The notes below the pieces were generated by a model. The model ran no database searches. It saw only the letters and a program-made list of their open reading frames with translations, and had not been told where the DNA came from. A stretch of 59,104 nt of DNA, counting the filler, from Sphacelaria rigidula (taxonomy: Eukaryota): NCBI GenBank assembly GCA_964200075.2. It is 7 parts of 7 records of this genome, joined end to end, with 100 filler letters (N's around TTAATTAATTAA, not from the genome) between each part and the next. Parts side by side here need not be neighbours in the genome. Positions count along the whole stretch, not along the records: positions 50,748 to 59,104 come from CAXNAA020011406.1; 6 more parts are not named here. One strand, given 5' to 3'. Below, piece by piece: positions 2,182 to 55,772 of the stretch. The translations under genes and the position numbers were made by a program. Every line of letters starts with the position of its first letter. Position 1 is the first letter of the stretch.

Positions 2182-2224
2182 GGTGCTCCGTTCCGAAAGG
2201 CAAGCAACAAATGAGTACGCCCCT
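2182..2224 (+). mobile_element. Internally deleted 3' end of the C-run-associated LINE family
   Basis: GGTGCTCCGTTCCGAAAGGCAAGCAACAAATGAGTACGCCCC matches the 51007-51077 copy with a deletion between two AAGG motifs. Both flanks are C-rich. Confidence 0.75.
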
Positions 2225-4775: not shown

Positions 4776-5684
4776 ACAAGGCACGGGTACGACGGTGCCC
4801 GGCAGCACATGAGCACTAATGGGGGTGGGCGGCGAACGGGTATAGACGGAGGATCGCTTTTTTCTTGAGGAGTTGTTCCCTTCCGTCCCGGTGGATCACG
4901 TCTCATCTCTGTTGAGTAGAAGATGCATCCGAGCTTCGTCGACTATTCTTTCACATCGACTTCATGTTGAGGAGTTGTGTACCTGTTGGTTGGTTGAGAT
5001 AAGACGTTGAGATTGCGGTGGAAGAGGTAGGTAGGAGGGGTTTTTCTGTGTGCTTTTAGTACTACTGTACTCATGTTAATGGCGTAAGTCAGAAAATGCG
5101 TATACTCAAGTAGTAAACATTACAAGCAAGCACGGGAGCCGAAACATCGATCGAACGAACGGACAGACGACATGGGTGGGAAGAGCGGGTAGAGGGTTGA
5201 AAGCTTTCTCCTCGATCTCGTCGGCTAATATGCTGATGAAAAGTAGATCAAGGACAGCACAGAGAAACGTCGTGGACAGAAACAGGCGGGACACGTTGCC
5301 CCTGTAGACGGTATGTGGAAGAACATTTTGCGATAGAACAAGAAGAAGACAGAAACGAAGACGATATCCATGGATATGGAGGGGTTATTGTCGAAGCGCT
5401 TGTGTTGAAGCCACAAACTATCGGCAAAAAAGTTGTTTGTTGTAGTGTTTTGGCAACCCAGCAACAATGTAGTGGCCCCACCTCGAATCGAAAACGTTCG
5501 AAGCACAAAGAGAGACAAGCAAGCAAGACACAGTGTCAAGCGGAGTTCCCCGATACCTCCATTCTTCACTCGATGCGCTGCGATCGAATTTTGAATACAG
5601 CATGATAATGCTAGAAGTCCGCATACTTCTCAACTGGTCAAAAGGTATGACATACGCACTGATTCGTCGCTCGCTTACTTACCG

Positions 5685-5752
5685 GGGCTCCGTCTCGAAA
5701 GGGATGCGTGGTCAATGGTCAAATGACTAAGGCAAGCAACAAATGAGTACGC
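5685..5752 (+). mobile_element. Short 3' end of the C-run-associated LINE family
   Basis: GCTCCGTCTCGAAAGGGATGCGTGGTCAATGGTCAAATGACTAAGGCAAGCAACAAATGAGTACG, with a TSD-like CTTACC(C)GG on both sides. Confidence 0.85.
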
Positions 5753-8459: not shown

Positions 8460-8528
8460 CCCGGCTTTGGAGGGATGCGAGGTCAATAGTCTGATGACTA
8501 TGGCATGCATGATCATGAGTACACCCCG
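8460..8528 (+). mobile_element. SINE-like partner of the C-run LINE, variant tail, cut by contig start
   Basis: CCCGGCTTTGGAGGGATGCGAGGTCAATAGTCTGATGACTATGGCATGCATGATCATGAGTACACCCC. The same variant is on the minus strand at 16780-16817, 49886-49981 and 50578-50647. Confidence 0.8.
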
Positions 8529-14919: not shown

Positions 14920-16917
14920 GTGAATATACAACTACGTCCAGCAAAATTTTCAAAACCTATGTCTAACGCTACATTTACGCAGTCTCTGCTACCCGGCACC
15001 GGTGCGGATGATGCACAAGCAAGCGATGCCCTGTTCTCATCACCCATGGGGTCTGCATTACTCACCACCTCGTGTGAACCGCCGCACGTACGCCGACGCA
15101 AGTGTGTATTGTCGGTGGACTAGTGCACTGTACTGTACTCGTGTGATGGTTGCGTTCTCATTTCGGGACAAACTCTCAGTTCTCTTCCTTTTACCGTGGT
15201 CTAATTAGGAACCACCTGAGGGGAACTGGTGCTCAAAGGCGAGGCGCATTCTGGCAATCCCATCTTGCCTCAGATGTCGCTTGCACGTTCTCTCCCCGCG
15301 CAGCGTGGGTTTTCCCTCAACCCCTTCTTTACTCAGGTATTTGCACGATGCGTGGATAAGAGTAGGCGTATACTACAAAGAGTTGTTTCGCACGATGTCG
15401 AGGCGGGAATGATACTGTGGAGCATAACGTATAGCATCATGGCGCATATGTGTGTTAGCCCGAGTAAATGCAGTATAGAGCACGACAAACTTCATGTCCT
15501 GGGTTAATAAATATGTATGGTACTCAGGGGGCGGTGTTCAGAGAGAGTCCCCACGATGCCAACCCGCGATGTTGCTGTGGCTAGTAGTGCCTATCGCGAC
15601 CAAGTGGCGTCAAAAACTAAACCCTGTGTACATTGGTTAAATGTCTCTTAATCCATGGAGGCCTACCATGCATTCGAGAGTGGTCTTACATGAGGATACT
15701 TGTTGGCTTTACAGCGTCTTTTCTACGAGGCATCCCAAACGTATCATGTCGTTGCGCACCAGTGGTAGACTGACGAGAAATAAATATCTAGGCTTCCGTT
15801 CGGCATTTTTCAACCAAAGCATACCCCTCTCCGCCGATGCCCTCAAAAGTCGCTGCGCCGCTACCATCACCGAGCGACCCTGTAGGGCGCACGGACGCAC
15901 CTCCACTATGCACAATAAACGCTAAACGTCATCCCTATGTGCCGTCATTGGCTTCTCCAGAAAAATCGCATTTTTCGACTATCATTTTAGGCGTCACACG
16001 TACTCTGTGCAAGACATATCCTTTTTCATTCAACAACACAGCTGAATCAACCCTGGAGTCATCATGCTATGGGCTCCAGCTAATTTCGATTCAGTCGTCT
16101 CGCAGAATGTTACTGTAGTCGGGCGCGCACTCTCTTGTATGGATTGCTATGGAAGAACCAAAAACCACGGATAATGGCCAACCCTCCGCCACCGTCGCGA
16201 CCGTTGCGACCATTCGACCCCACACCGCTCTTTGATGTCCCTATAGTCTTCCCCCTCTCCCAGCCCTCGCATGAACCTTCAACAGGGACAAAATCAGCTG
16301 CACCCCGCGACGCCTCGCTCGCTCCCCCAATCCCGTCCAGTAGACGACCCACACTAGACTGCCTCCGTCGCAACCACTCGCCCCTTCCTTCGACGCGTCC
16401 GCTGTCATTACCCTCGTTATCTCGTCCGCCGACATTTCAGCTGCAACCACTACTGTGTGTGGGTGCGGGAGTAGACAAGAAACGCAGTGGCCGTTGCAAT
16501 CGCAACTTAGGGATAGTGCGGTTCCTTAAATACTTTCACGATCGGCACATACGACGTCTTGCCGCTACCCCGCTCCGACTTGTAAGTTCACCGCTACGCT
16601 CGGGGTTTCGACATTTGTTCGCATAACATCGATTGGTCCGATTGGTTGGGTGTTGCACATTAACTGATCCGGTGCGAATCCTGCCGTGCTTACAATATAG
16701 ACGGACGTACCCAACGTAAAAATAATCGGAAAAGATCGCTAAAGAGAACTTGACAAAGACGAAGTATGGGGGGGGGGAGGGGTGGACTCATGATGATTCA
16801 TGCCATAGTCATAAGACNNNNNNNNNNNNNNNNNNNNNNNNNNNNNNNNNNNNNNNNNNNNTTAATTAATTAANNNNNNNNNNNNNNNNNNNNNNNNNNN
16901 NNNNNNNNNNNNNNNNN

Positions 16918-18177
16918 GGCTCCGACCACTCGCCACGGACCTGTCCACGTGGACATCAACTTTGGCGCCACACCTTGCCTCCGAACACGGGCATGCAAAA
17001 CGAATTCATCAACTGCAAACTTGGGCAACACAGCCTGGCCCTGAGCAAGCTTGCGTTTGGTTTCGCGAGACACCGCGACAGCAGCTTGCACTTCGTTACA
17101 AAACCGTACTTGCTCGTCAACCACGCCTCGAACCTTGTCACACAACGAATCAGCATCCATGACATCGACGTTCCACTCGCCGCCACTAACGGAAGCCAGC
17201 GCGGGAAACGCTGTACGTGGCGCATGCCCAAACATTCCACAACACGGAATGTTACGGCAGCGTTCACGAAAATAAGTATTCAAGCCCCACTGGGCGACTG
17301 GCAAAATATCAACCCATTCAGACACCGGCCGTCGCTGTTCCGACAAAATAGACCGCAACGCACGAGTAGCCTCTTTCACCATTTGTTCACAAGCACCATT
17401 CGACCAAGGGTTATACGCAACAACAAATTGGTGTTGCACCTTAAACGCATCGCTCAGCTGCGCGATCACTCGATTGTTTAAGAGCGAGGCGGTATCCCTA
17501 AGCCAAACACGCGGCACCCTCAAAGTCTTGCACCAATGGAGCAATTGCTTAGCCGTAACCTCGGCGGTGCAAGCTTCGGTTGGCTCCAAGCAAACGAAAT
17601 TGGACAAATCATCAATGATAACCAAAATGTACCGAAAACCATCCTCATCAGGCAAACCATTAGTACCTTCAGGTCCGCTACTTCCGACGTACAGAAAATC
17701 AAAGTGAACACCTTCACCTGGCGCAGTACCATGCACAGTATCGCCACACGGACGAGGTAAAATCTCACCAGCACGGGTGTCTACACAATGCAAACACTGG
17801 CGAACGAACTCGCGAACGTGGAAATCCATGTGAGGCCACACACAGAATTCTTTCAAATGAAACAGAGTCGGCGCCACACCACGGTGACCAGCCGACCGCG
17901 TGTGAGCGCACACCATTAAGCGAGTTCGTACAACCTTATCATCCGATGGAATCCACAAAACATCAATACTGCTAACACGCACGCGAAACAAATCATCGTG
18001 AGCCATAGTAGCTGGACCGAAAGTCGGAGAGAAATAATCAACACCGTCGTCGACTGTTTTGCGCTGCGCGGTACGAATGACATCTAACGAGGGCACCGAA
18101 TCATCGGCATCACACGGGCTGCACATGGCAACAGAATGAATAGGCACGGTAGGAACCTTCACCAAGCGAGACAACAA
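16918..18177 (-). pseudogene. Gypsy integrase
   Basis: HHCC (AH...GHRG...CLHC), catalytic core (HFDFL...LRDTA...NGACE) and GPY/F motif (WTGPWRV). Confidence 0.9.
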
Positions 18178-22868: not shown

Positions 22869-25168
22869 GCTATTTCCAAGTCACGACTTGAACATAGTTA
22901 TGTCCAAGTCCAGCTGCGATTTGCCTACCTGCCCGCGTTCGTCCTATGTCCCTTGCATCGACACTACAACACCCGGAATTCATTCACACAGTCCGTAGCC
23001 ATCGTTCAACCCATCGCACGGTAAAAACAGCCTCGTAGCGGACGAGGAACGCGCCTGCTGCACAGTGCCAAAACATACCGCCGCCCGACTGGAGTTGGAC
23101 ATGAGCTATATGTATGTACAAGTCGCGACTTCGCGACTTATGTCCAAGTCACGACTTGGGCACTTTGGACATAGCTTATGTCCAAGTCCAGCGAGTGGAA
23201 TACCTGTCCGTGCTTGTCCCATGTGCCTTGCATCGTCACCACAGCAGCTGGAGTACACTCACCCAGTCCGTAGCCAACGTTTAAGCCATCGCACGGTGCA
23301 AACGGCATCGCAGCGGACGAGAAACGCGCCTGCCACGCACAGTGCCAAGACATACCGCCAACCGGCTGGAGTTGGACGAAATCTATGTCCAAGCCGCGAC
23401 TCGGCGACTTGAACACAGCTTAGGTCAAAGTCCAGCGAGTGGAATGCCTGTCCGCGCTCGTCCCATGTGCCTTGTATCGACACCACAGCAGCTGCAGTAC
23501 ACTCACACAGTTCCATCATTCAAGCCATCGTGGGGTATAAACGACGTTGTAGCAGAGGAGAAACTCGCCTGTTGCACGCAGTGCCAAAAATTATATCTGC
23601 ACCGGACTGGACTCGGACATAGCTTCTAGCAAGTGGAACATCTGTCCGCGCTCGTCTCATGTGCCTTGTATCGACACCACAGCAGCTGCAGTACACTCAC
23701 ACAGTCCGTTGCCATTGTTCAAGCCATCGTGGGGTGCAAAGCTAAGGTACGGGAGCCGTATCACGGTGCTGTAGCCTTGAGGGCTAGATACACAACAAGG
23801 GCCTTCTTCCTCGCAGCTCCTACAGCCGTGGGATATCGACCCACTGGTTGTGTGTCGAGGACACCGCCGGTGCGACGAAGAAAGGGTCGATTCATGGAGC
23901 CACTTCCGCGTTTGGTACACGTTATCCGCACTTCGTACACAACAGCCCCAGGTTACACGGGCATTGAGCAATATCCATGAAGCTTGTATGAAGTTGGTCG
24001 CACTCGTCTTGACGTTGATAACGTACGACGCGAGAGAGCTGAGCAGTGTGTACATTTCTAGTTTATTGAACACAGTAGATACATGTTCACGCTGCCTGGA
24101 ACCTCAGTGCATCACGGAATAACACAAGTGGAACGTACAAGTGGCAATCACCTGTCGGCGTTCTTGTCTGCAACGCGGCCGGTATCAATCGCAAGCACAT
24201 GATTACGTGCTCCCATGCCCTCAGCCAGCATAGCGTATGTTCAAGTTGCTCAAGTCGCGTTTTTTACAAAAGCTATGTCCGAGTCCAGTCCGTTGCAGAT
24301 ATAATTTTTGGCACTGCGTGCAACAGGCGCGTTTCTCGTCCGCTACAACGCCGTCTGCACCCCACGATGGCTTGAATGATGGCTACGAACTGTGTGAGTG
24401 TGCTGCAGCTGCTGTGGTGTCGATACAAGGCACATGAGACGAGCGCGGACGGGTATTCCACTCGCTGGATTCGGACAAAGCTTATGTTCAACTCCAGTCG
24501 GTTGGCGGTATGTCTTAGCACTGTGTGAGGCAGTCGCGTTTCTCGTCCGCTACGACGCCGTTTGCACACCACGGTAGCTTGAACGATGACGACGGACTGT
24601 GTAAGTGTATTGCAGCTGCTGGGTTGTCGATACAAAGCACATGGGACGAGCGCGAACAGGCATTCCACTCGCTGGATCTGAACATGAGCTTTCTCCAAGT
24701 CGCCAAGTCGCGGGCGGTATGTTTTGGCACTGTGCGTGGCAGTCGCGTTTCTCTTCCGCTCCGAGGCCGTTTTCACCGTGCGATGGCTTGAACGATGGCA
24801 ACGGACTGTGTGAGTGTACTCCAGCTGCTGTGGTGTCGATGAAAGGCACATGGGACAAGCACGGACAGGTATTCCACTCGCTGAAGTTGGACATCAGCTT
24901 AGCTTATGTCTGACTCCAGTCGCGCGGCGGTATGTTTTGGCACTGTGCAGCAGGCGCGTTCCTCGTCTGCTACGAGGTTGTTTTCACCGTGCGATGGCTT
25001 GAACGATGGCTACGGACTGTGTGAACGTATTCCAGGTGTCGTAGTGTCGATGTAAGGCACATAGGACGAACGCGGGCAGATAGTCAAATCGCAGCTGGAC
25101 TTGGACATAACTATGTTCAAGTCGTGACTTGGACAAAAGCTATGTCTAGGTCGCGACTTGAAAATAGC
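22869..25168. mobile_element. Foldback element with long modular inverted arms
   Basis: The left arm (22869-23740) and right arm (24237-25168) are reverse complements. Each is built of about four diverged 200-280-bp units, with a ~500-bp non-repetitive centre. Confidence 0.88.
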
Positions 25169-32480: not shown

Positions 32481-33068
32481 TTTGACATGGGAAAATAAAA
32501 TTGAGCTGTTTCCCTCTACAGTTTACGTCTATATCCGGGCTGTGCTATGGCAGGTCAAAGAAAAAGGATGGTCGGCTTCGCTATTTCATGTCCATCTCCG
32601 GGCTGTGTTATGATCGGTTAAAGAAAACGAATGGTTACCTTTATTACTTCATGTCTATGTCTGTGCAAGATTCAGTTTTGTTTTTCTTCAAGCCCTACTC
32701 CGAGCATTTTTAGCGCGAATTAGGCGCACTTCATGCGCCTTATTCCCATCCTTGTTGTCGCGTTTTGGCAGTTTCCCTTCACCAGGTGCGCCTTCTAGTA
32801 TGAGGACAAGACGGCAAGTTGGGCATTCGAAGCTTTGATGTTTATTTGTTGCACGAAAATGAAGCTTTTCTTCAGCCATCGAGCTTTCAGGCCACAACCT
32901 GCACACCTACACCCTACCCCACGTACGGAAACAACAAATGCTACTACACTTATGATACATGATAGATCAGAAGAAGGTCATTGTAGCCTCTGGACGCAAC
33001 GTGTTACGGCCTTTGGCCTCTCGCTCGGCAAGCTACAAGCTACTGCCCTCCCTCCCCATCATTCACCA

Positions 33069-33135
33069 TGCTCCGTCTCGAAAGGGGTGCGTGGTCAATG
33101 GTCAAACGACTAAGGCAAGCAACAAATGAGTACCC
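33069..33135 (+). mobile_element. Short 3' end of the C-run-associated LINE family
   Basis: TGCTCCGTCTCGAAAGGGGTGCG...ATGAGTAC, flanked by TSD-like CCCCATCAT on both sides. Confidence 0.85.
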
Positions 33136-41395: not shown

Positions 41396-42599
41396 CTGCA
41401 CAAACGGTGGAAATTGAGAAGGAGACGAGATAAGGTAGGGAGAGCAGAATATGATAAACACATTGATGGAACCGCAGGAGATACGGCGGATATCACCCGA
41501 GAACGAAGAGGAACCATATATTGATTCTCTCCAGAGAAGTGACCCCGCAATGTCATAAAATCTCCACATTATGTTTACTTCGCCGAAAGTTCAGGCGATG
41601 TGACTTTTGGTGACCCATAACCAATAGTCGAATTTCCCAATCGCCGCCTGCGGGGATGCACTCGGCCCGAACCACGACAAGGGCTGTGGACAATACACAG
41701 GGGATCCACGCGTGACTGGTTAACTCGGAAGGCGAACACCAACGTACGGCTTGTCATCTCACTGGCTCATCCCTCTGGTTTTGGTGTGAAGCACTGCATG
41801 AATGGTGTACTGCAGCTGAGAACAGCACAGTGGCACGCTAGAATGTTGGGGAATATCAACGGCACATCCAGTCGGCATAGCATCGTCGCCAACGAAAGAG
41901 ATGCATGAATGCACAAAGCACACGTGCACACATATCTGCGACGGCAAATGAGCTCTTCATTTGAGGACACCGAAAAGCCTCGAGCACACCGCAACCATGT
42001 ACTTGAGACTCGTTGAAAGTTTCACCTCTTGACTACTTTGCCTCTGCAACACCCTCATCACGCACTTCATATACACCCGATCAAGTGAGCCAGACGGCTC
42101 CTTACCCCCTGTATTGAACCCCCCATGAGGCAGTGTATAAGCCGTGGCTGTCTCTGGAAGTGGCGATACCAGAAAATAAAGCAACTCAATNNNNNNNNNN
42201 NNNNNNNNNNNNNNNNNNNNNNNNNNNNNNNNNNTTAATTAATTAANNNNNNNNNNNNNNNNNNNNNNNNNNNNNNNNNNNNNNNNNNNNGGGGGGGGGG
42301 GCGCCGGGTTTTCGCCGGACCAGGCTCGGGGGGGAGGGGGAGCTGGCTAGAAAAAATGCTTTGGGCACGCAGACGCGTGTGTTGTACTACAGTTGTCGTG
42401 TTACGCGTGAGTACGAAATTTGAATTTGGGTTTATTGCGGATTTGACTCGTCAGGGGTTCGCTACCTGTACACTCTTATTTGCCTACCCCACCTGCAAAA
42501 GGGTCGCGCCTCATGGAATGACAGGTGGGAAACAGCATGTAAACATGATTAATATAATGTTAACACAAGGTGGAGAACATGTACGCATGATTTGCGATG

Positions 42600-45900: not shown

Positions 45901-48630
45901 TGCCGTGAGCGATATGTATTACCCACATATTGTTGGCATTGGCAATCGATAGCTGCCTACAATAATCCAACCTTGACGGCAAAGGCAATCGATAAGTTGT
46001 TCCCCAAATCAATCGATGATGGAAATGATGATCTAAAGGTACACCCGAGAATCTATTGCGGTATACGATGTCCATCAATGACCAGTGATCTCAATAGATT
46101 GTAACTGCCGTAGACTACTGATTGAGGCTCAAGACATGTCTTGTCGCTCACAATACTCATCAATTGATGTGTTTCACCATCTGTTGCGTTGGACAACATA
46201 TATCGCGAGGTTTCCCCCGCGTATATTATTGAAGAAATTGAATATTGCCGTGTTCATTGCCCAAAGCGAAGTGCTTCGTTCTGTGAACCTTCGGTGTCTT
46301 CATATATGACCACGGCTGCATTGTTCGAGCTTAATAAAATATGCGACAACAAATCCATCAAATATTTGACCAATACGTATACCTCTCTAGTTGTACTTAT
46401 TTCTTATCGGGATTGGCGTTGATCGACTTCCGATGTAGCGGGGATTCTAGCATTAGGTATCTGCCATATAATATCATGATATTTCTCAAAGTTGATGCCA
46501 AAGGTCACTCTACAACGAACATTCGAGTCACAAACGGTTCCAACTGAGAAACACAACTGTTACACATACAATATTGTACTAAATACTACTGAAGCATCTT
46601 TGTTCTCTGTTCCTTACGAAGTAGCTCGTTTCTCTCGCGCTACGGTATTTTGGTCGCCAAGGTCCGACCTACTCGGTCATCATTGTATGTGTCAGGTGAT
46701 GGTGACGCTAGTGTCCAACATGAACAAGACCAGACACGACATCAACATCTTCATGGTACGCTCTTATCCCATCACACGGCAAGCAAGCACGAGCACAGGA
46801 GCACAGGAGCACAGGGCACACACAAATGCGCTCGAACTGCTGAGCACGCGGGCGCTTCACGAGAAAGCACAGCTACGACAAGAATAGACGGCAGCTTCCT
46901 TACCCGCAGGATCGTCCAATTTGGCAGTATCGCGCGGGACGGTTTTTACGTGTTCGTCCGAAGCGTTGACCTTCGGCTTTTTCTCCGGCAGGGGTGCCCC
47001 AGGCCGAGTCCACTGCGTTGTCTTTTTAATGCTGTCCTGGTAGTACGTTTTGCCGGCCGGGGTCTTCAGCTCGATCCACCCTGGTGAGTCCAGCGAGATA
47101 CAGATGATTACAACCAGCGAAACACGAAAGGCCTGATACAATCCCCCACCACGAGCTTTGCGTGATCGTACGAAGCACCAAGACATTTACTGGCCACGAG
47201 CTTGGGGGAAAACGACCACGGAGACAAGAGCAGAGCACAATATCACAAGCTTTTTTGTATTGAATCATTTCGACAGATATATTTCGAATCCGGAGAAAAA
47301 GGTTTTCTTGGACGTCCAGCAGGGAGTCAACGGAACGGCAGAATGCGATTCACGCAAAGCCGTGAGGGTAGGGGCAGAACAAGCGCGATCAGCAACATAG
47401 GCTGCGCATACTTTGGCCAACGCCAGTGATGATGAAGGGACGGGTAGGGCATCGTACATGCAGCAGCGTAGCAAAAATCAAACACATGCTAAGCCCAGCA
47501 ACTGGAATGGACGCCTGCAAAGAAACGGTACAAAACTCTGAAACGACCAGATGACAACTTGAACTATAAAAAAGTTTATAACAAACACACCCACAGCACA
47601 ATTCCCAACCCACACAACGCCCTTCTCTCTTCACACAACAAGCAACGAGGATCCCCGCACACATCCATCTTGCCACGACGATCAAACGCCAACCTGCTAT
47701 CATCGATGACGCTCTCAATCGACGAAAATGCAGTGACACCGTGAGAAGGACATCGTCCACGTAACTTGCCTTCCGGAAGCGGTGGCAACTCGGGCTCGCC
47801 TCTCGAGCCCACCGCACTAGCAGAACTAACTACACCACTCGCACGCGCATCGGCCACCCCCAACTTCGCCACTGTCGCAAGCCCAGTCGCATCATCAGGC
47901 ATATCACTCGTGGGGGTTCCGTGGCCATTCCCGGGCCGGCTTACACTACTACTCCCAGCCCGGTGCTGATCGACAGGTGCTCCAAACAATCCCGTCTTCA
48001 GCGCCGATAAAGGGCCGTTGTTCCCGTCTCGCTCATCTCCTGCGTCCGACTTCCAGTCGGGATTCGCGTGCGCAGCAACACCTGTGGTAGCAGAGGCGAC
48101 GGACCGTGCGGTTCCGGCGACATGTGACGCTGCGGTGGCCGCTGAGGGGTTCGATTTAGCGTGTACGGTAGCTGATGGTGCTCGCTCACCGGATCCGGGG
48201 TCTGCGCTGTGTGCCTGTCGACCTTCCGCGCTCACCACCGCAGCACTGCTAGCACCATTGCCGTTGCTGCCCTCCAAGTAGCTGCTGGGGTTTACATTGC
48301 GGAGGGCTGAATCTCGAGAAGCAGCAGTATTATAAACATCGGTAGGGTCAGGATCTCCGTCGTCATCGTAATCTTCGTCAGGTTGGTCATCTTGCGCACG
48401 ACCCCTTCTACTGTCGGTGATCGAGTCAGACGCCACGGCGGTTTGGTGAGTGCTGTCAGCCGTGGTGAAGGGAGTGTTGTACTCCGGAGACGATGGACCG
48501 CCTCCGTTGTTCGTTGGGGCTCCGTAAACGGTGCCCGGTTTCGGAGCAGGCGGGCGCGTCCAGTGCGTGGTCTTGTCGTTGTGATTAATGTAAAACACCT
48601 TGCCTTCCGCGGACATTCGCTCTTCCCAAC
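42948..48630 (-). CDS. Multi-WW-domain protein, internal exons
   Basis: Exons 48630-47770 (GWEERMSAEGKVFYINHNDKTTHWTRP), 47080-46904 (GWIELKTPAGKTYYQDSIKKTTQWTRP), 43554-43300 (WEKVMTADGRPYYQNSVTRETSWRKP) and 43028-42948 (ends PLPP-G). All junctions are phase 1. Confidence 0.85.
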
Positions 48631-49664
48631 CTGCCACCCGTCAAAACGGAACCGCACCAAACCACGGGCCCACCCATTCTTTTTGAATCAGCATACCTAC
48701 GAATAGACAAGCCCAACTTTTTTAGACCGGTGGTCAACAGGGTGGAGTAGACGCTGTAGAAAAAAACAGGACGCCAGCCTACTCGCCAAGACTGCAGGGG
48801 GTGAAATGAGCAAAAATAGATTGATCAAATACGCATGACGAACGATTGCTTCACTTGAAAAGGCTTTCTTTTCATGAACCAAATATTCATCGTTCTCCCT
48901 TGTCTTCTTCCATATGTTCCCCCTGGTCGAATGGTAGAGGAAATCCACAAAACAAGCACCTTGCTGGAAGTCAGAATACCAAAAACCACACATTCAAGTA
49001 ATGCCATACGCATGGTTCATCAGTAGCAGCAACAGTATTCGCTACTACGCTTCAAATTATACTAGCCGCAGTCCCCACCCTCCCGACAAAGTCAGGTCGT
49101 CCCTATCGGGACGGATTGAAGTCGTGAGTTGGACTGGACTGCAGTGCGGCCCAAGGTATGTATGGTAAATAGGAGCCCTCTTCCCGCCGAGTGCCGTAAA
49201 ACACGGTATTCACCACCGCTGGTGCGTCCGTTTCTTGGAAGTCCAGAAACTTGTTTCCCGTCAATAATATTTAGGATGACTATGAGTGGGGTGATGTGCC
49301 ACGTTTCCCACTGTAGTGCTCTATGTATTGGTATGATGAGGACAGAAGCCGAAAACGTATCGACTAGGGGTGCTTCCCAGGAGGGGTGGGTGTCTGCACA
49401 CTTGCGGTGCAGGCTTGTCGCAGATAGTGTAGTACGACACAGCAACGAAATAACATAATTTTACACTATCTTGTTTTACTACACAACACAACACACCACA
49501 GCACACAATTTATTATTTTTCATTATGTTTCAAGAACTACAATATCATTATGTATTTTCCAACAAGAGTCTGCGCATGGTAAACTTGATCCCGACCTCTC
49601 AAAACATGGGGCTGGGCTCTTACCCGTAACTACATCCATATTCTGGACGGGGCAGGGGCGGGGG

Positions 49665-49981
49665 GTACTCACTTGTTGCTTGCCTTCGTCATTTGGCCAG
49701 TCATAAGGCATCCCTTCCGAGATGGAGCACCAACCCTACTACTCATCACGTTCATTCCACATTACAGAAAACCTTTACATATCTCATTCCACAGATGTTT
49801 CGCCTTCTGTGGTCACCATGATTCTCCTAGTGCAGCGATCATTTTCCAGCTACTTTCTAATGTACAAGGCGAGCGAGGGGGGACTGTACTCATGATCTTG
49901 CATGCCGTTGTCATATGACCAGTGACCTCGGGTCCCTAACAAGCCGGGCCGGAGCACGCCGGGTTTTCGCCGGACCAGGCT
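49665..49981 (-). mobile_element. Older LINE 3' fragment (49665-49870) plus adjacent SINE-like partner (49886-49981)
   Basis: Reverse complements of 50850-51072 and 55481-55576 respectively. Both end in GAGTAC next to G/C-runs. Confidence 0.8.
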
Positions 49982-50326
49982 CACAATCGATCACCAAGCG
50001 CGAAGCGCAGTGATGTAATGTGTTCGGCGGGTCGCGGAAAGGGTGAGCTGCATCCTGCTAAGATCGTTCGGCCCAGAACGTACTGATCATCGAGCAAATT
50101 GATGACAGCCTTCAATGAGTTGCTTCATTTTCTGGTATCGCCACTTCCCGCGGCGGACATGGCTTACACACTGCCTCATGGATCTCACCATAGGAGGGAG
50201 GGAGGGTGGGGGGTCATTTGGGACGTACGAGTCACACGACGCATGAACCGTATTATGCGGTAACAGGGACGTTGTCATACCACAAGCCAAAGGACACATG
50301 ACCCATTCGTAACTGACGGGTCCCCT

Positions 50327-50385: not shown

Positions 50386-50747
50386 TTCGAACGGACACAA
50401 TGCAACCAGATGACTCGAGTGAACGGTGATACTGTATTGTAGAGTACATTGTGCACGAAACTGCAACAGACCTTTTGTACCTAGACCGCTCCCTCAATGG
50501 TAATATGTGAAAGTAACTGTTTCTTGCTACAAGTCACAACGCAATCTTGGATGAGTGAGAAATGAAGGGAAGGGTGAAGGGTGTACTCATGATCATGCAT
50601 GCTATAGTCATCAGACCATTGACCTCGCATCCCTACGATGCCGGGACNNNNNNNNNNNNNNNNNNNNNNNNNNNNNNNNNNNNNNNNNNNNTTAATTAAT
50701 TAANNNNNNNNNNNNNNNNNNNNNNNNNNNNNNNNNNNNNNNNNNNN

Positions 50748-51077
50748 TGGCATAATGTGAGCTATACAAGGAGGAACGGGACGTGCTAGAGGGGGAAATG
50801 CGGGATGTGAACGAAGGTGGCATGCATGCAATCGTTTGATGCATTAGACAGTAGGGAGAAAACGATGGCTATACCAGGATAGAGGTGGTGGCCAGAGACG
50901 GCGAAACAGGACGAGGATAAGATATGTATAGGGTTTTTGTGTAATGTATGGAAGGAACGTGATGAGCGCCGAAATATTGGAGTTGTCTCTATTAGGAGTA
51001 GGAACGGTGCTCCGTCTCGAAAGGGATGCGTGGTCAATGGTCGAACGAGGAAGGCAAGCAACAAATGAGTACGCCCC
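50748..51077 (+). mobile_element. LINE ORF2 C-terminus and 3' end, cut by contig start
   Basis: Decayed frame CELYKEERDVLEGEMRDVNEGG...LDSREKTMAI..*RWWPETAKQD..KIC..FLCNVWKERDER...SIRSRNGAPSRKGCVVNGRTRKASNK*, followed immediately by GTACGCCCC. Confidence 0.8.
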
Positions 51078-51536
51078 TCTCATTTATCGTAGGATGACTC
51101 TTACCCACAATCGAATTGTTTCAATTCGACAGGATTCTGTCGGAATGTCCAAACCATCGAGCTGGTATTCAGACGGCGACACAACAGGCAGCAGCAGGCA
51201 AACCTACTCCGCGGGGTCTTCTCGAGTGTCGCACTCCAAGAGTACCCGATCACATTCTCTCACAACGAGCATTGCGGGCGGAAACGGCATTCAAAACTTG
51301 CTCTCCAACAGATCGTACAGTGTAGACTCTTATCGACGCGCTTCTCACTCTGTTCAGCCGCGAACTCTCCGACAGCACAATCACTGTGCCGGATATGGTA
51401 CCCCGTCTCGTTGGTGTATAAACGAAACGAAACATCCACACGAAGAGCCCTTCAGGGTGTCCGGTCCGCTGCACTACTTTTTACCCGCCGTATCCTACTC
51501 GGGTAAGCACCAGAGATCTGACCTTACAGCACCAAC

Positions 51537-54500: not shown

Positions 54501-55772
54501 ACGCGGTCGGGTTGCATTTCCATTCGCTAACCGACGTCGAAATTGGCGCCAGTACATCTTCCTGAAAAGTCGTCTAGTTCCCGCTGGCGTTTCGTCCACA
54601 TGATTCTCTACCGTACGGGTGCCTCGAACAAATTCGGAGATTAAGCTGCCAGTCTAGGAATCGAGCCCTTTCTCTCGACGATGGGCGCTTTTGTATAACT
54701 CACGGGTAAAAATATCGAAGATCCATCAGGGAAACTCACCTTTGCCTCAGCCAGAGTTTCAATAAGGGCCGTATTGTCCAGAATGTTTCCCTCGCTTTCA
54801 CTCAGCAACCGAAGGATTTGGCTCTCGATGTTGTACAGCTCGATATTCATGGCAGCCCCGTTGATCACAAGCTCCTCCTGGAAGGGATCGATTTGACAAG
54901 ACATGGTAAGCACGGTCAAGCGGCGCGCGGAACGTTAGGGACACGTTGGCTCGCCAAAATCATGCAACAATATCGACGCCGGCGATGAGGATGCTCCGAG
55001 CGTCATCGGGTGCGAACTCGGACGTGCGGTGAGAAACCTCAAACCTAGGGTTAGGGTTAGGGTTAGGATTAGGGTTACCTGCCTTGACGTATATTTTGCG
55101 CGTTTTGTTCTACAAGCAGTAGAAGAGGTGCACGGCTCTTTCAGTGGATACGGTGAGTCGTGCTACGATAGGGGGATAGGGGGGGGGTGTTCGATTCCGC
55201 GAAAAAATGGGTTCATAGGTTCGTCAGACGTCCCAACACACTCGCGGTGCGCTTGTATTTGGGTAGAAGCGATGTTAAACAGTATGAGGGAGCATTACAA
55301 CACGGAAGCAAGCGCGTTCGAACTACCGTTGCTGCTGTTAACGTCGACTGCGAGTAGGATTTCATGGAAAAAAACGGCCCAAAATATCCCCCCCCCCCCC
55401 GTTGCTCCGTCTCGAAAGGGATGCGTGGTCAATGGTCAAATGACTAAGGCAAGCAACAAATGAGTACGCCCCCCCATCGTAGCCTGGTCCGGCGAAAACC
55501 CGGCGTGCTCCGTCCCGGCTTTGTAGGGATGCGAGGTCAATGGTCAAACGACTAAGGCAAGCAACAAATGAGTACGCCCCCCCCATCGTAGAATTACTCC
55601 GGTGCACTGTTTTTCAATTGTTCTACGTGAACACCAGTCTTCTCTCTTGGATACAATCAAGCCCATAGTCGGGTTCCTTCGCAGTGAAGCGATCAAGAAA
55701 CAATTTCAAAACGTCCCAGACATCTGCAGAACAGTGCTCTACAAAACGGTTTCACGGCACCAGAGCACCTGG

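Follow-up and report, generated by a model that had tools for sequence, protein, structure and literature searches.

The question raised by positions 51006 to 51072 of this Sphacelaria rigidula sequence is whether the last codons of a LINE can also serve as the RNA signal by which the element is copied. An earlier note had described these bases as the 3′ terminus of a LINE that lacks both poly-A and a 3′ UTR, with a branched RNA structure encoded in the final codons. The window, by which we mean the whole 59,104-nt stretch of DNA that was analysed, is made of seven equal pieces of ~8,358 nt each, joined by spacers of the form N44-TTAATTAATTAA-N44, and is not a single locus. The 67-nt module occurs about 12 times in it, and the first 23 nt of the module match the window five times at three mismatches or fewer, against no match in 100 shuffles. 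Copies were placed by BLAST, by regular expression and by a covariance model, R1, which was built on ten consensus-type copies with the proposed structure and which recovered 17 copies. They were sorted into type A, the consensus, whose tails are 96% identical to each other, and the variant types B and C. The positions at which the copies had been reported earlier all proved correct. The copies and their parts are as follows.

50748 to 51072, plus strand: degenerate LINE copy, probably of RTE-X type, 3′ 325 nt, from translation and alignment to the outside relatives L001, L002 and L007
51006 to 51072, plus strand: terminal module of that copy, 67 nt, spanning the final 20 codons, the stop codon and GTAC; scores 92.1 bits with model R1
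51066 to 51068, plus strand: TGA stop of the LINE ORF, within the 3′ strand of the predicted closing stem
51073 to 51077, plus strand: G then CCCC, the lineage-specific last base and the start of a C-run tail or C-rich target
5684 to 5750, plus strand: tail-only copy, type A, with the approximate duplication GCTTAC(TTA)CCGG on its flanks
33067 to 33133, plus strand: tail-only copy, type A, with its start near 33069; the target duplication is C-rich and ends ...CCCCATCAT
55401 to 55467, plus strand: tail-only copy, type A, between C-runs
2182 to 2218, plus strand: tail-only copy with an internal deletion, both closing-stem strands kept
49665 to 49866, minus strand: 5′-truncated LINE copy, ~200 nt, of a diverged subfamily, with a type A tail at 49665-49731
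55481 to 55575, plus strand: 5′-truncated non-autonomous partner, a head fragment and a B tail (55504-55575) with a 9-nt loop and an in-frame TAG
49885 to 50063, minus strand: non-autonomous partner, ~180 nt, with a variant C tail at 49886-49958
8460 to 8522, plus strand: variant C tail, cut by a piece start
50583 to 50647, minus strand: variant C tail, cut by a piece end
16784 to 16817, minus strand: variant C tail fragment, cut by a piece end

The 51006 copy, which lost its 5′ side at the piece boundary, retains 258 nt of decayed ORF upstream to the piece start; the ORF remnant is interrupted by stops and ends ...GAPSRKGCVVNGRTRKASNK followed by the terminal TGA. Of the 12 inner piece ends, five (8460, 16817, 42291, 50647 and 50748) fall within members of this repeat family or within its C-run, a pattern that suggests contig breaks at the abundant tail repeat. 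Elsewhere in the window, a satellite-like block of tandem and inverted repeats occupies 22871-25166, with units of ~200 nt at 71-93% identity, and two long ORFs lie at 16918-18177 (-) and 47576-48640 (-), one with integrase zinc-binding and core domains (Ty3/gypsy-like) and the other with a WW domain.

Because the window's 12 longest ORFs contain no LINE reverse-transcriptase or endonuclease domain (Pfam returned only the integrase and WW domains), outside sequences were needed to identify the element as a LINE. Relatives were found with a 20-nt tail pattern in marine metagenome contigs (L001-L003) and in contaminant contigs of MAGs (L006 and L007). BLAST of two MAGs added no copy and the covariance model added one, L029; a scan of viral contigs gave no match. 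Three further hits to the 20-nt pattern, L004 and L005/L008, were set aside as chance matches, the last two being overlapping stretches of one Clostridia MAG contig.

The intact relatives each have one long ORF, measuring 1,426 aa from stop to stop in L002, 1,382 aa in L007 and 1,253 aa in L001. In L002, Pfam places Exo_endo_phos at residues 235-461 (E 6.7e-13) and RVT_1 at residues 807-1056 (E 1.1e-30). This layout is RTE-like: in the one ORF an APE-type endonuclease on the N-terminal side precedes the reverse transcriptase, and there is no REL endonuclease. Matches in the PDB were to generic LINE reverse transcriptases only (L1 ORF2p, E 2.9e-22; R2, E 4e-18). L007 aligns to L002 over 4,910 nt at 78.5% identity and to L001 over 3,773 nt at 95.5%, and the similarity of L002 and L007 continues to the contig end of L002. 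Among 39 protein matches, the closest named ones are from Ectocarpus sp. (66%, 53% and 46% identity), with one from Undaria, and the host is therefore a brown alga. Judged by its matching features and its Ectocarpus homologs, the element probably belongs to RTE-X.

These relatives also settle how the element ends. The ORFs of L001, L002 and L007 all close with ...KASNK at the same TGA, which is followed by GTAC and stands 4 nt before the end of the similarity. The 51006 copy reads likewise, with TGA at 51066-51068, then GTAC and then G. The idea that the ORF runs into the terminal module and that its stop is followed by only GTAC(G/A) is thus upheld, and the reading of the module as a LINE 3′ end lacking poly-A is borne out by the endonuclease and reverse-transcriptase ORF of the intact relatives.

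The last codons of the ORF show constraint on the nucleotides themselves. Between L002 and L007, 3% of bases differ in the last 22 codons, compared to 23% across the ORF, a value in the lowest 0.4% of 22-codon windows. The 20 identical codons of this stretch contain no synonymous difference, while the ORF-wide rate is 36%; by simple arithmetic on that rate, 0.64^20 is ~1e-4. Comparison of L002 with L001 gave the same outcome for the last codons. The B and C tails, which carry an in-frame TAG or a shifted frame, nonetheless keep the nucleotide blocks TGCTCCG, GGGATGCG.GGTC.ATGGTC, GACTA, GGCA.GCA and GAGTAC. We considered whether the conservation lies mainly at the protein level, such that the last ~20 residues with their VVNG-type motif form a functional C-terminal peptide and any RNA fold is incidental. 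A motif of the form [R/C]-V-[V/A]-[N/D/Y]-G does occur 6-13 residues from the C-terminus in 14 of the 39 relatives, down to 27% identity and with several in the range of 27-38%, and the variant tails read GCEVNG... in one frame. Set against this are the silent sites, the blocks kept in partners that no longer read in frame, and the fact that tail-only units, which are unable to encode protein, are the most abundant form, and we regard a mainly peptide-level explanation as very unlikely. Part of the tail conservation may still act on the protein, with RNA and protein both possibly constrained, and the low divergence between the L002 and L007 tails could also come from exchange of tails between subfamilies. 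The proposal of an element inside the ORF holds to the extent that the terminal module is constrained at the nucleotide level and is common to non-coding partners.

Model R1 matches the tails of LINE copies and of non-coding partners alike. The C tail is the end of a non-autonomous element of ~180-200 nt, present in the window at 49885-50063 (-) and outside it in L029 and at L006:2645-2843; the two MAG copies share 94% identity over 199 nt, and the window copy matches them at 77% over 167-184 nt. The partner head has no Rfam or ARAGORN match, and by these searches it is not the tRNA-, 5S- or 7SL-derived head with a Pol III promoter that defines a strict SINE. Tail-only units carry no head of any kind.

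The head itself can form a small hairpin, written CCGG...CCGG at 49960-49982 (-) and at 55481-55503 (+), and UCGG...CCGA or UUGG...CCGA in L029 and at L006:2720-2745. One C-G pair is changed there to U-A, on both sides. An isolated head fragment (GAGCCTGGTCCGGCGAAAACCCGGC) lies at 42302-42334 (-) in the window, at a piece start, with C-runs on both sides and no tail.

After 14 of the 17 ends there is one base and then at least six C in 10 nt, in a window whose C content is 26%. Directly after GAGTAC, each of the 11 A/B-type copies and a single variant copy have G or C, and the window's four variant copies have A; because this base goes with copy type in this way, it belongs to the element. The 3′ end is thus a very short UTR and a simple repeat, with the (C)n and C-rich duplications of brown-alga RTE-X elements. 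Approximate C-rich target duplications flank tail-only copies, for example CCCTCCCTCCCCATCAT around 33067-33133, and one tail-only copy (5684-5750) has a duplication that is not C-rich, GCTTAC..CCGG. The truncated partner at 55481-55575 is flanked by the duplication GCCCCCCC(C)ATCGTAG. Of the earlier description, the lack of poly-A stands, but the element does have a tail, the C-run. The ending that had been written stem-N-CC and likened to a tRNA is better explained by the element end, one base that is G or A, and behind it a (C)n tail or C-rich target.

The heptamer ATCGTAG recurs just 3′ of C-runs beside tails, at 51086-51092, 55476-55482 and 55585-55591, near 55179 (-), and in the 3′ flank of L002. 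It is also found inside the 9-nt loop region of the variant tail at 50647. Its recurrence may reflect a preferred target or remnants of older copies.

The shortest copies had been said to begin at the 5′ strand of the closing stem, and the four tail-only copies in the window do have their first base among the module's first 4 nt. To this we can add contigs from four public runs aligned to 50748-51250 (57,980 for X1, 28,729 for X3, 2,709 for X6 and 2,877 for X7), of unspecified library type and with one run possibly the source of the window. Among the matches listed, the best-supported 5′ break points were 51007 and 51008 in X1 (170 and 303 contigs), 51008 in X3 (254), and 51008 and 51010 in X6 (44 and 25) and X7 (54 and 26). 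The best-supported 3′ break point among the matches listed was 51077 in every run (394, 281, 100 and 95 contigs in X1, X3, X6 and X7). Truncation points are thus strongly clustered at 51007-51010 and not uniform, and this sharp 5′ boundary in all four runs agrees with the suggestion of a minimal mobile unit. Summed contig depth in X1, which does not give copy numbers, was ~2e7 over 51003-51036, ~2e6 just upstream and ~250 in unique flank, a sign of very high abundance of the tail unit.

A sharp 5′ boundary need not say anything about structure. One or a few truncated founder copies, bounded by C-runs, could have been re-mobilised by read-through, or new copies could have been joined by microhomology at C-rich targets. 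SINE-like families generally inherit the 5′ end of their founder. The contig consensus has poly-C on both sides of the unit, and the contigs contain tandems of the form unit-(C)n-unit, seen as joints of 66-73 nt that go back to the start of the unit across C, CC or CCCC, each of them in as many as 14 X1 contigs. The Ectocarpus family RTEX-N1 is likewise noted as one that 'can be present in tandem' (PMC12477816). All this would suit such an origin, while against it the boundary is spread over 51007, 51008 and 51010 and is not one base, and nothing diagnostic separates the window's tail-only copies from LINE tails. We find this explanation of the uniform 5′ end somewhat unlikely, and it is compatible with the tail being a recognition element. 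Descent from a founder, processing of the RNA, and joining at C-rich ends are all possible sources of the discrete 5′ end.

We then come to the RNA fold that gave the locus its interest. The predicted elements in the 51006 copy are these.

51007 to 51012, plus strand: closing stem, 5′ strand (GTGCTC), predicted from the minimum-energy fold to pair with 51067-51072; 94% of cells paired
51067 to 51072, plus strand: closing stem, 3′ strand (GAGTAC), predicted, the last bases of the module
51014 to 51027, plus strand: hairpin 1 (GTCTC-GAAA-GGGAT), predicted from the minimum-energy fold; four of five pairs vary one-sidedly
51038 to 51051, plus strand: hairpin 2 (TGGTC-N4-GACTA), predicted from the minimum-energy fold and degraded in this copy

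For the consensus 67-mer, ViennaRNA gives exactly the closing stem with hairpins 1 and 2 as the minimum-energy fold, at -17.3 kcal/mol and a z-score of -1.8. The same three-way junction is the minimum-energy fold of L002 (z -2.3), L003 and the B tail (z -1.0). Most other copies have z-scores of -1.0 to +0.5. Taken over all copies, the stability of the fold is not clearly above chance. Mutated copies fold otherwise, as do two C tails of the three partner tails folded alone. The branched fold put forward earlier is thus the minimum-energy fold of the consensus, while its z-scores, -1.8 to -2.3 at best, are weak. Hairpin 2 had been called degraded in the 51006 copy, and comparison to the contigs confirms that the changes are private to it (majority contig letters: 51043 G>A, 51049 G>C, 51050 G>T). 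The copy at 2182, as had also been observed, keeps both strands of the closing stem despite its deletion.

Aligned across 17 copies, 93.6% of cells pair. The alignment counted is that of the covariance model; one made by MAFFT put the 5′ part of the variant copies in the wrong place and was set aside. Of 19 pairs in the model, seven show one-sided variation and none a change on both sides (the same with 16 copies), in a uniform and underpowered sample. The covariation score was 0.079, close to the shuffled mean of 0.073 and reached by 197 of 500 shuffles (17 copies). Lack of significant covariation had been named beforehand as a result that would speak against the fold, and these copies do lack it, with no compensatory pair, in a set too uniform to be decisive. 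The related statement that variants keep the pairing is right in that the stems are kept, with the qualification that all the changes are one-sided, from G-U to G-C or A-U. Minor letters are rarer in paired than in unpaired columns (fraction 0.056 vs 0.147; Mann-Whitney p 0.002). The loop of hairpin 1 is GAAA, GGAA or, in non-autonomous copies, 9 nt long, and that of hairpin 2 takes at least eight different 4-nt sequences, with the stem kept in both. From these folding models, we consider a branched fold of the tail plausible, with the two hairpins appearing to be its best-supported part. When the tail was folded in a 107-nt context, an upstream GGAGUA was predicted to pair with UGCUCC, displacing the closing stem. 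The competing site lies at 50985-51013 in the window (GGAGTAGGAACGGTGCTCC) and at the same place in L001, L002 and L007.

A second feature concerns the other end of the LINE. Outside the window, the 5′ UTR contains an antisense copy of the whole 67-nt tail, at L007:4728-4799 and L002:4745-4816. The predicted duplex of this copy with the 3′ tail has energies of -65.5 and -46.6 kcal/mol, compared to shuffled means of -26 and -23, and none of 500 mononucleotide shuffles was as low. On this modelling, the copy may have arisen by an old insertion in antisense, or it may work as a panhandle.

The sequence was also compared with known structured RNAs. ARAGORN found no gene in the window, so that no tRNA-like gene is predicted there, and Rfam at gathering threshold gave no match over the whole window. 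The 4,227 Rfam families used include tRNA models as well as those for hammerhead, HDV-like, hatchet, pistol and twister ribozymes. At E up to 10, Rfam again matched nothing on 50900-51120 or on L029:1-260, and on 55380-55620 it returned only SurA (E 0.14) and mir-7578 (E 5.1), both on the opposite strand, at chance level, non-ribozyme and far below gathering score. A hammerhead, which CTGATGA in the variant tails had brought to mind, was rejected, with no GAAA in the required place and no Rfam match.

The comparison to a tRNA-like 3′ tag is accordingly not sustained: no ARAGORN gene, no Rfam match to a tRNA or TLS, twelve unpaired bases in the minimum-energy fold where a T-arm would be, and a long C-run where CCA would be expected. 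A stronger version of this idea is that the module is a tRNA-like or self-cleaving tag, in which an RNase P-like activity or a ribozyme cuts at the foot of the closing stem to release a 67-nt RNA and the N-CC end mimics the 3′ end of a tRNA. In its favor, tail-only copies have their 5′ ends grouped within 1-4 nt, one base and then C's come after the terminal stem, and the antisense copy in the 5′ UTR has the same unit boundaries. Weighed against the negative searches, the missing T-arm and a C-run that is long and part of the target duplications, we consider it very unlikely.

We instead favor, as rather probable, the view that the 67 nt are a cis-acting 3′ recognition tail of a brown-algal RTE-X-type LINE, overlapping the end of its ORF. 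The element is about 5 kb or more in length, with one ORF for an APE-type endonuclease and a reverse transcriptase. With essentially no 3′ UTR, its tail consists of the last 20 codons, TGA and GTAC, followed by G or A and then the C-run. We hypothesize that this tail is recognised as RNA by the reverse transcriptase of the element, the probable form being a pair of hairpins closed by a terminal stem, and that synthesis starts from a nicked target, a G-run or C-run able to pair with the C-run, much as the poly-A of L1 is used on T-rich nicks. Other RNAs that bear the tail would then be copied in trans, giving rise to the ~190-nt non-autonomous partner and to the head-less 67-nt unit, with its very high copy number.

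A more elaborate form of this proposal can be imagined, in which the coding tail is a self-contained minimal retroposon defined by its structure. Cleavage or trimming of the RNA at the base of the terminal stem would set its 5′ end and nicks in G-runs would prime its G/A-(C)n end, while access to the tail in the full-length RNA would be gated by the GGAGUA hairpin and by the antisense copy in the 5′ UTR, which could form a panhandle of ~60 bp. We think that so complete a scheme is quite unlikely to be right in full.

If the tail is a recognition signal, the element is an extreme case of LINE compression, with the signal for reverse transcription written over the last codons and the stop, and because it overlies them, a single stretch would serve both protein and RNA. 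The same stretch also proliferates as a head-less 67-nt unit. For the question of what a stringent LINE reverse transcriptase requires, the family would be a small and natural model, and it appears to account for many contig breaks and C-runs in a brown-alga assembly.

Several features of the element are familiar from the RTE clade. RTE-clade elements are described as having 'unusually short 3' untranslated regions' (PMC1291365), and only the last 40-90 nt of RTE tails are reported to be common to dependent SINEs and bipartite non-autonomous elements (PMC5786205). As far as these descriptions go, RTE-1 of C. elegans and Bov-B resemble the element here in having a single EN-RT ORF, a short 3′ UTR and a short tail shared with partners. 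RTE tails end in AT-rich tri- to pentamer repeats, whereas the tail here ends in a C-run; because the UTR has shrunk to 4-5 nt, the shared tail is coding.

Another parallel, of the stringent type, is the eel pair UnaL2 and UnaSINE1, for which Kajikawa and Okada reportedly found in 2002 that the LINE's reverse transcriptase requires a conserved stem-loop in the 3′ tail, with a short repeat after it, to recognise an RNA. The stem-loop of UnaL2 and UnaSINE1 lies in the 3′ UTR, while the putative recognition tail described here lies in the ORF.

The nearest described elements are RTE-X LINEs of Ectocarpus. Supplementary file 1 of PMC12477816 lists RTEX-1_Ec32 as 5.5-5.9 kb with a 'single EN-RT ORF; (C)n 3'' and a TSD that is 'C-rich', and the same source gives RTEX-2_Ec32 '(C)n termini/TSD'. 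RTEX-N1_Ec32, at 607 bp, is annotated '60 bp 3' end 83% RTEX-1/RTEX-2; can be present in tandem' and is the most abundant family there, with >6,000 copies; RTEX-N2_Ec32, at 188 bp, 'could be SINE'. Among the table rows covered, the curated Ectocarpus LINEs with a (C)n end are all RTE-X (PMC12477816). Going by these entries, RTEX-1/2_Ec32 share with the present element a single EN-RT ORF, a (C)n end, C-rich duplications, very high copy number and partners that share a ~60-bp tail. The element here is seen over at least 4.9 kb, compared to their 5.5-5.9 kb, and its proteins are only 46-66% identical to those of Ectocarpus, which therefore makes it another species' family. Compared by description, the partner here (~180-200 nt, with an unmatched head, a LINE-like tail, C-rich flanks and occasional tandems) is similar to RTEX-N1/N2_Ec32.

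The notes covered on RTEX-1/2_Ec32 do not mention an ORF running into the shared tail or 67-nt tail-only units, the table rows covered contain no counterpart of the head-less 67-nt unit, and the words stem-loop, hairpin and secondary structure do not occur in the main text of PMC12477816. To the extent covered by these parts of the literature, three features are refinements not found there: the placing of the tail within the ORF, the existence of a tail-only unit, and the antisense copy in the 5′ UTR. Since curated Ectocarpus entries already cover the family, the (C)n end and partners that share the tail, the element described here is a refinement of a known brown-algal system and not a new kind.
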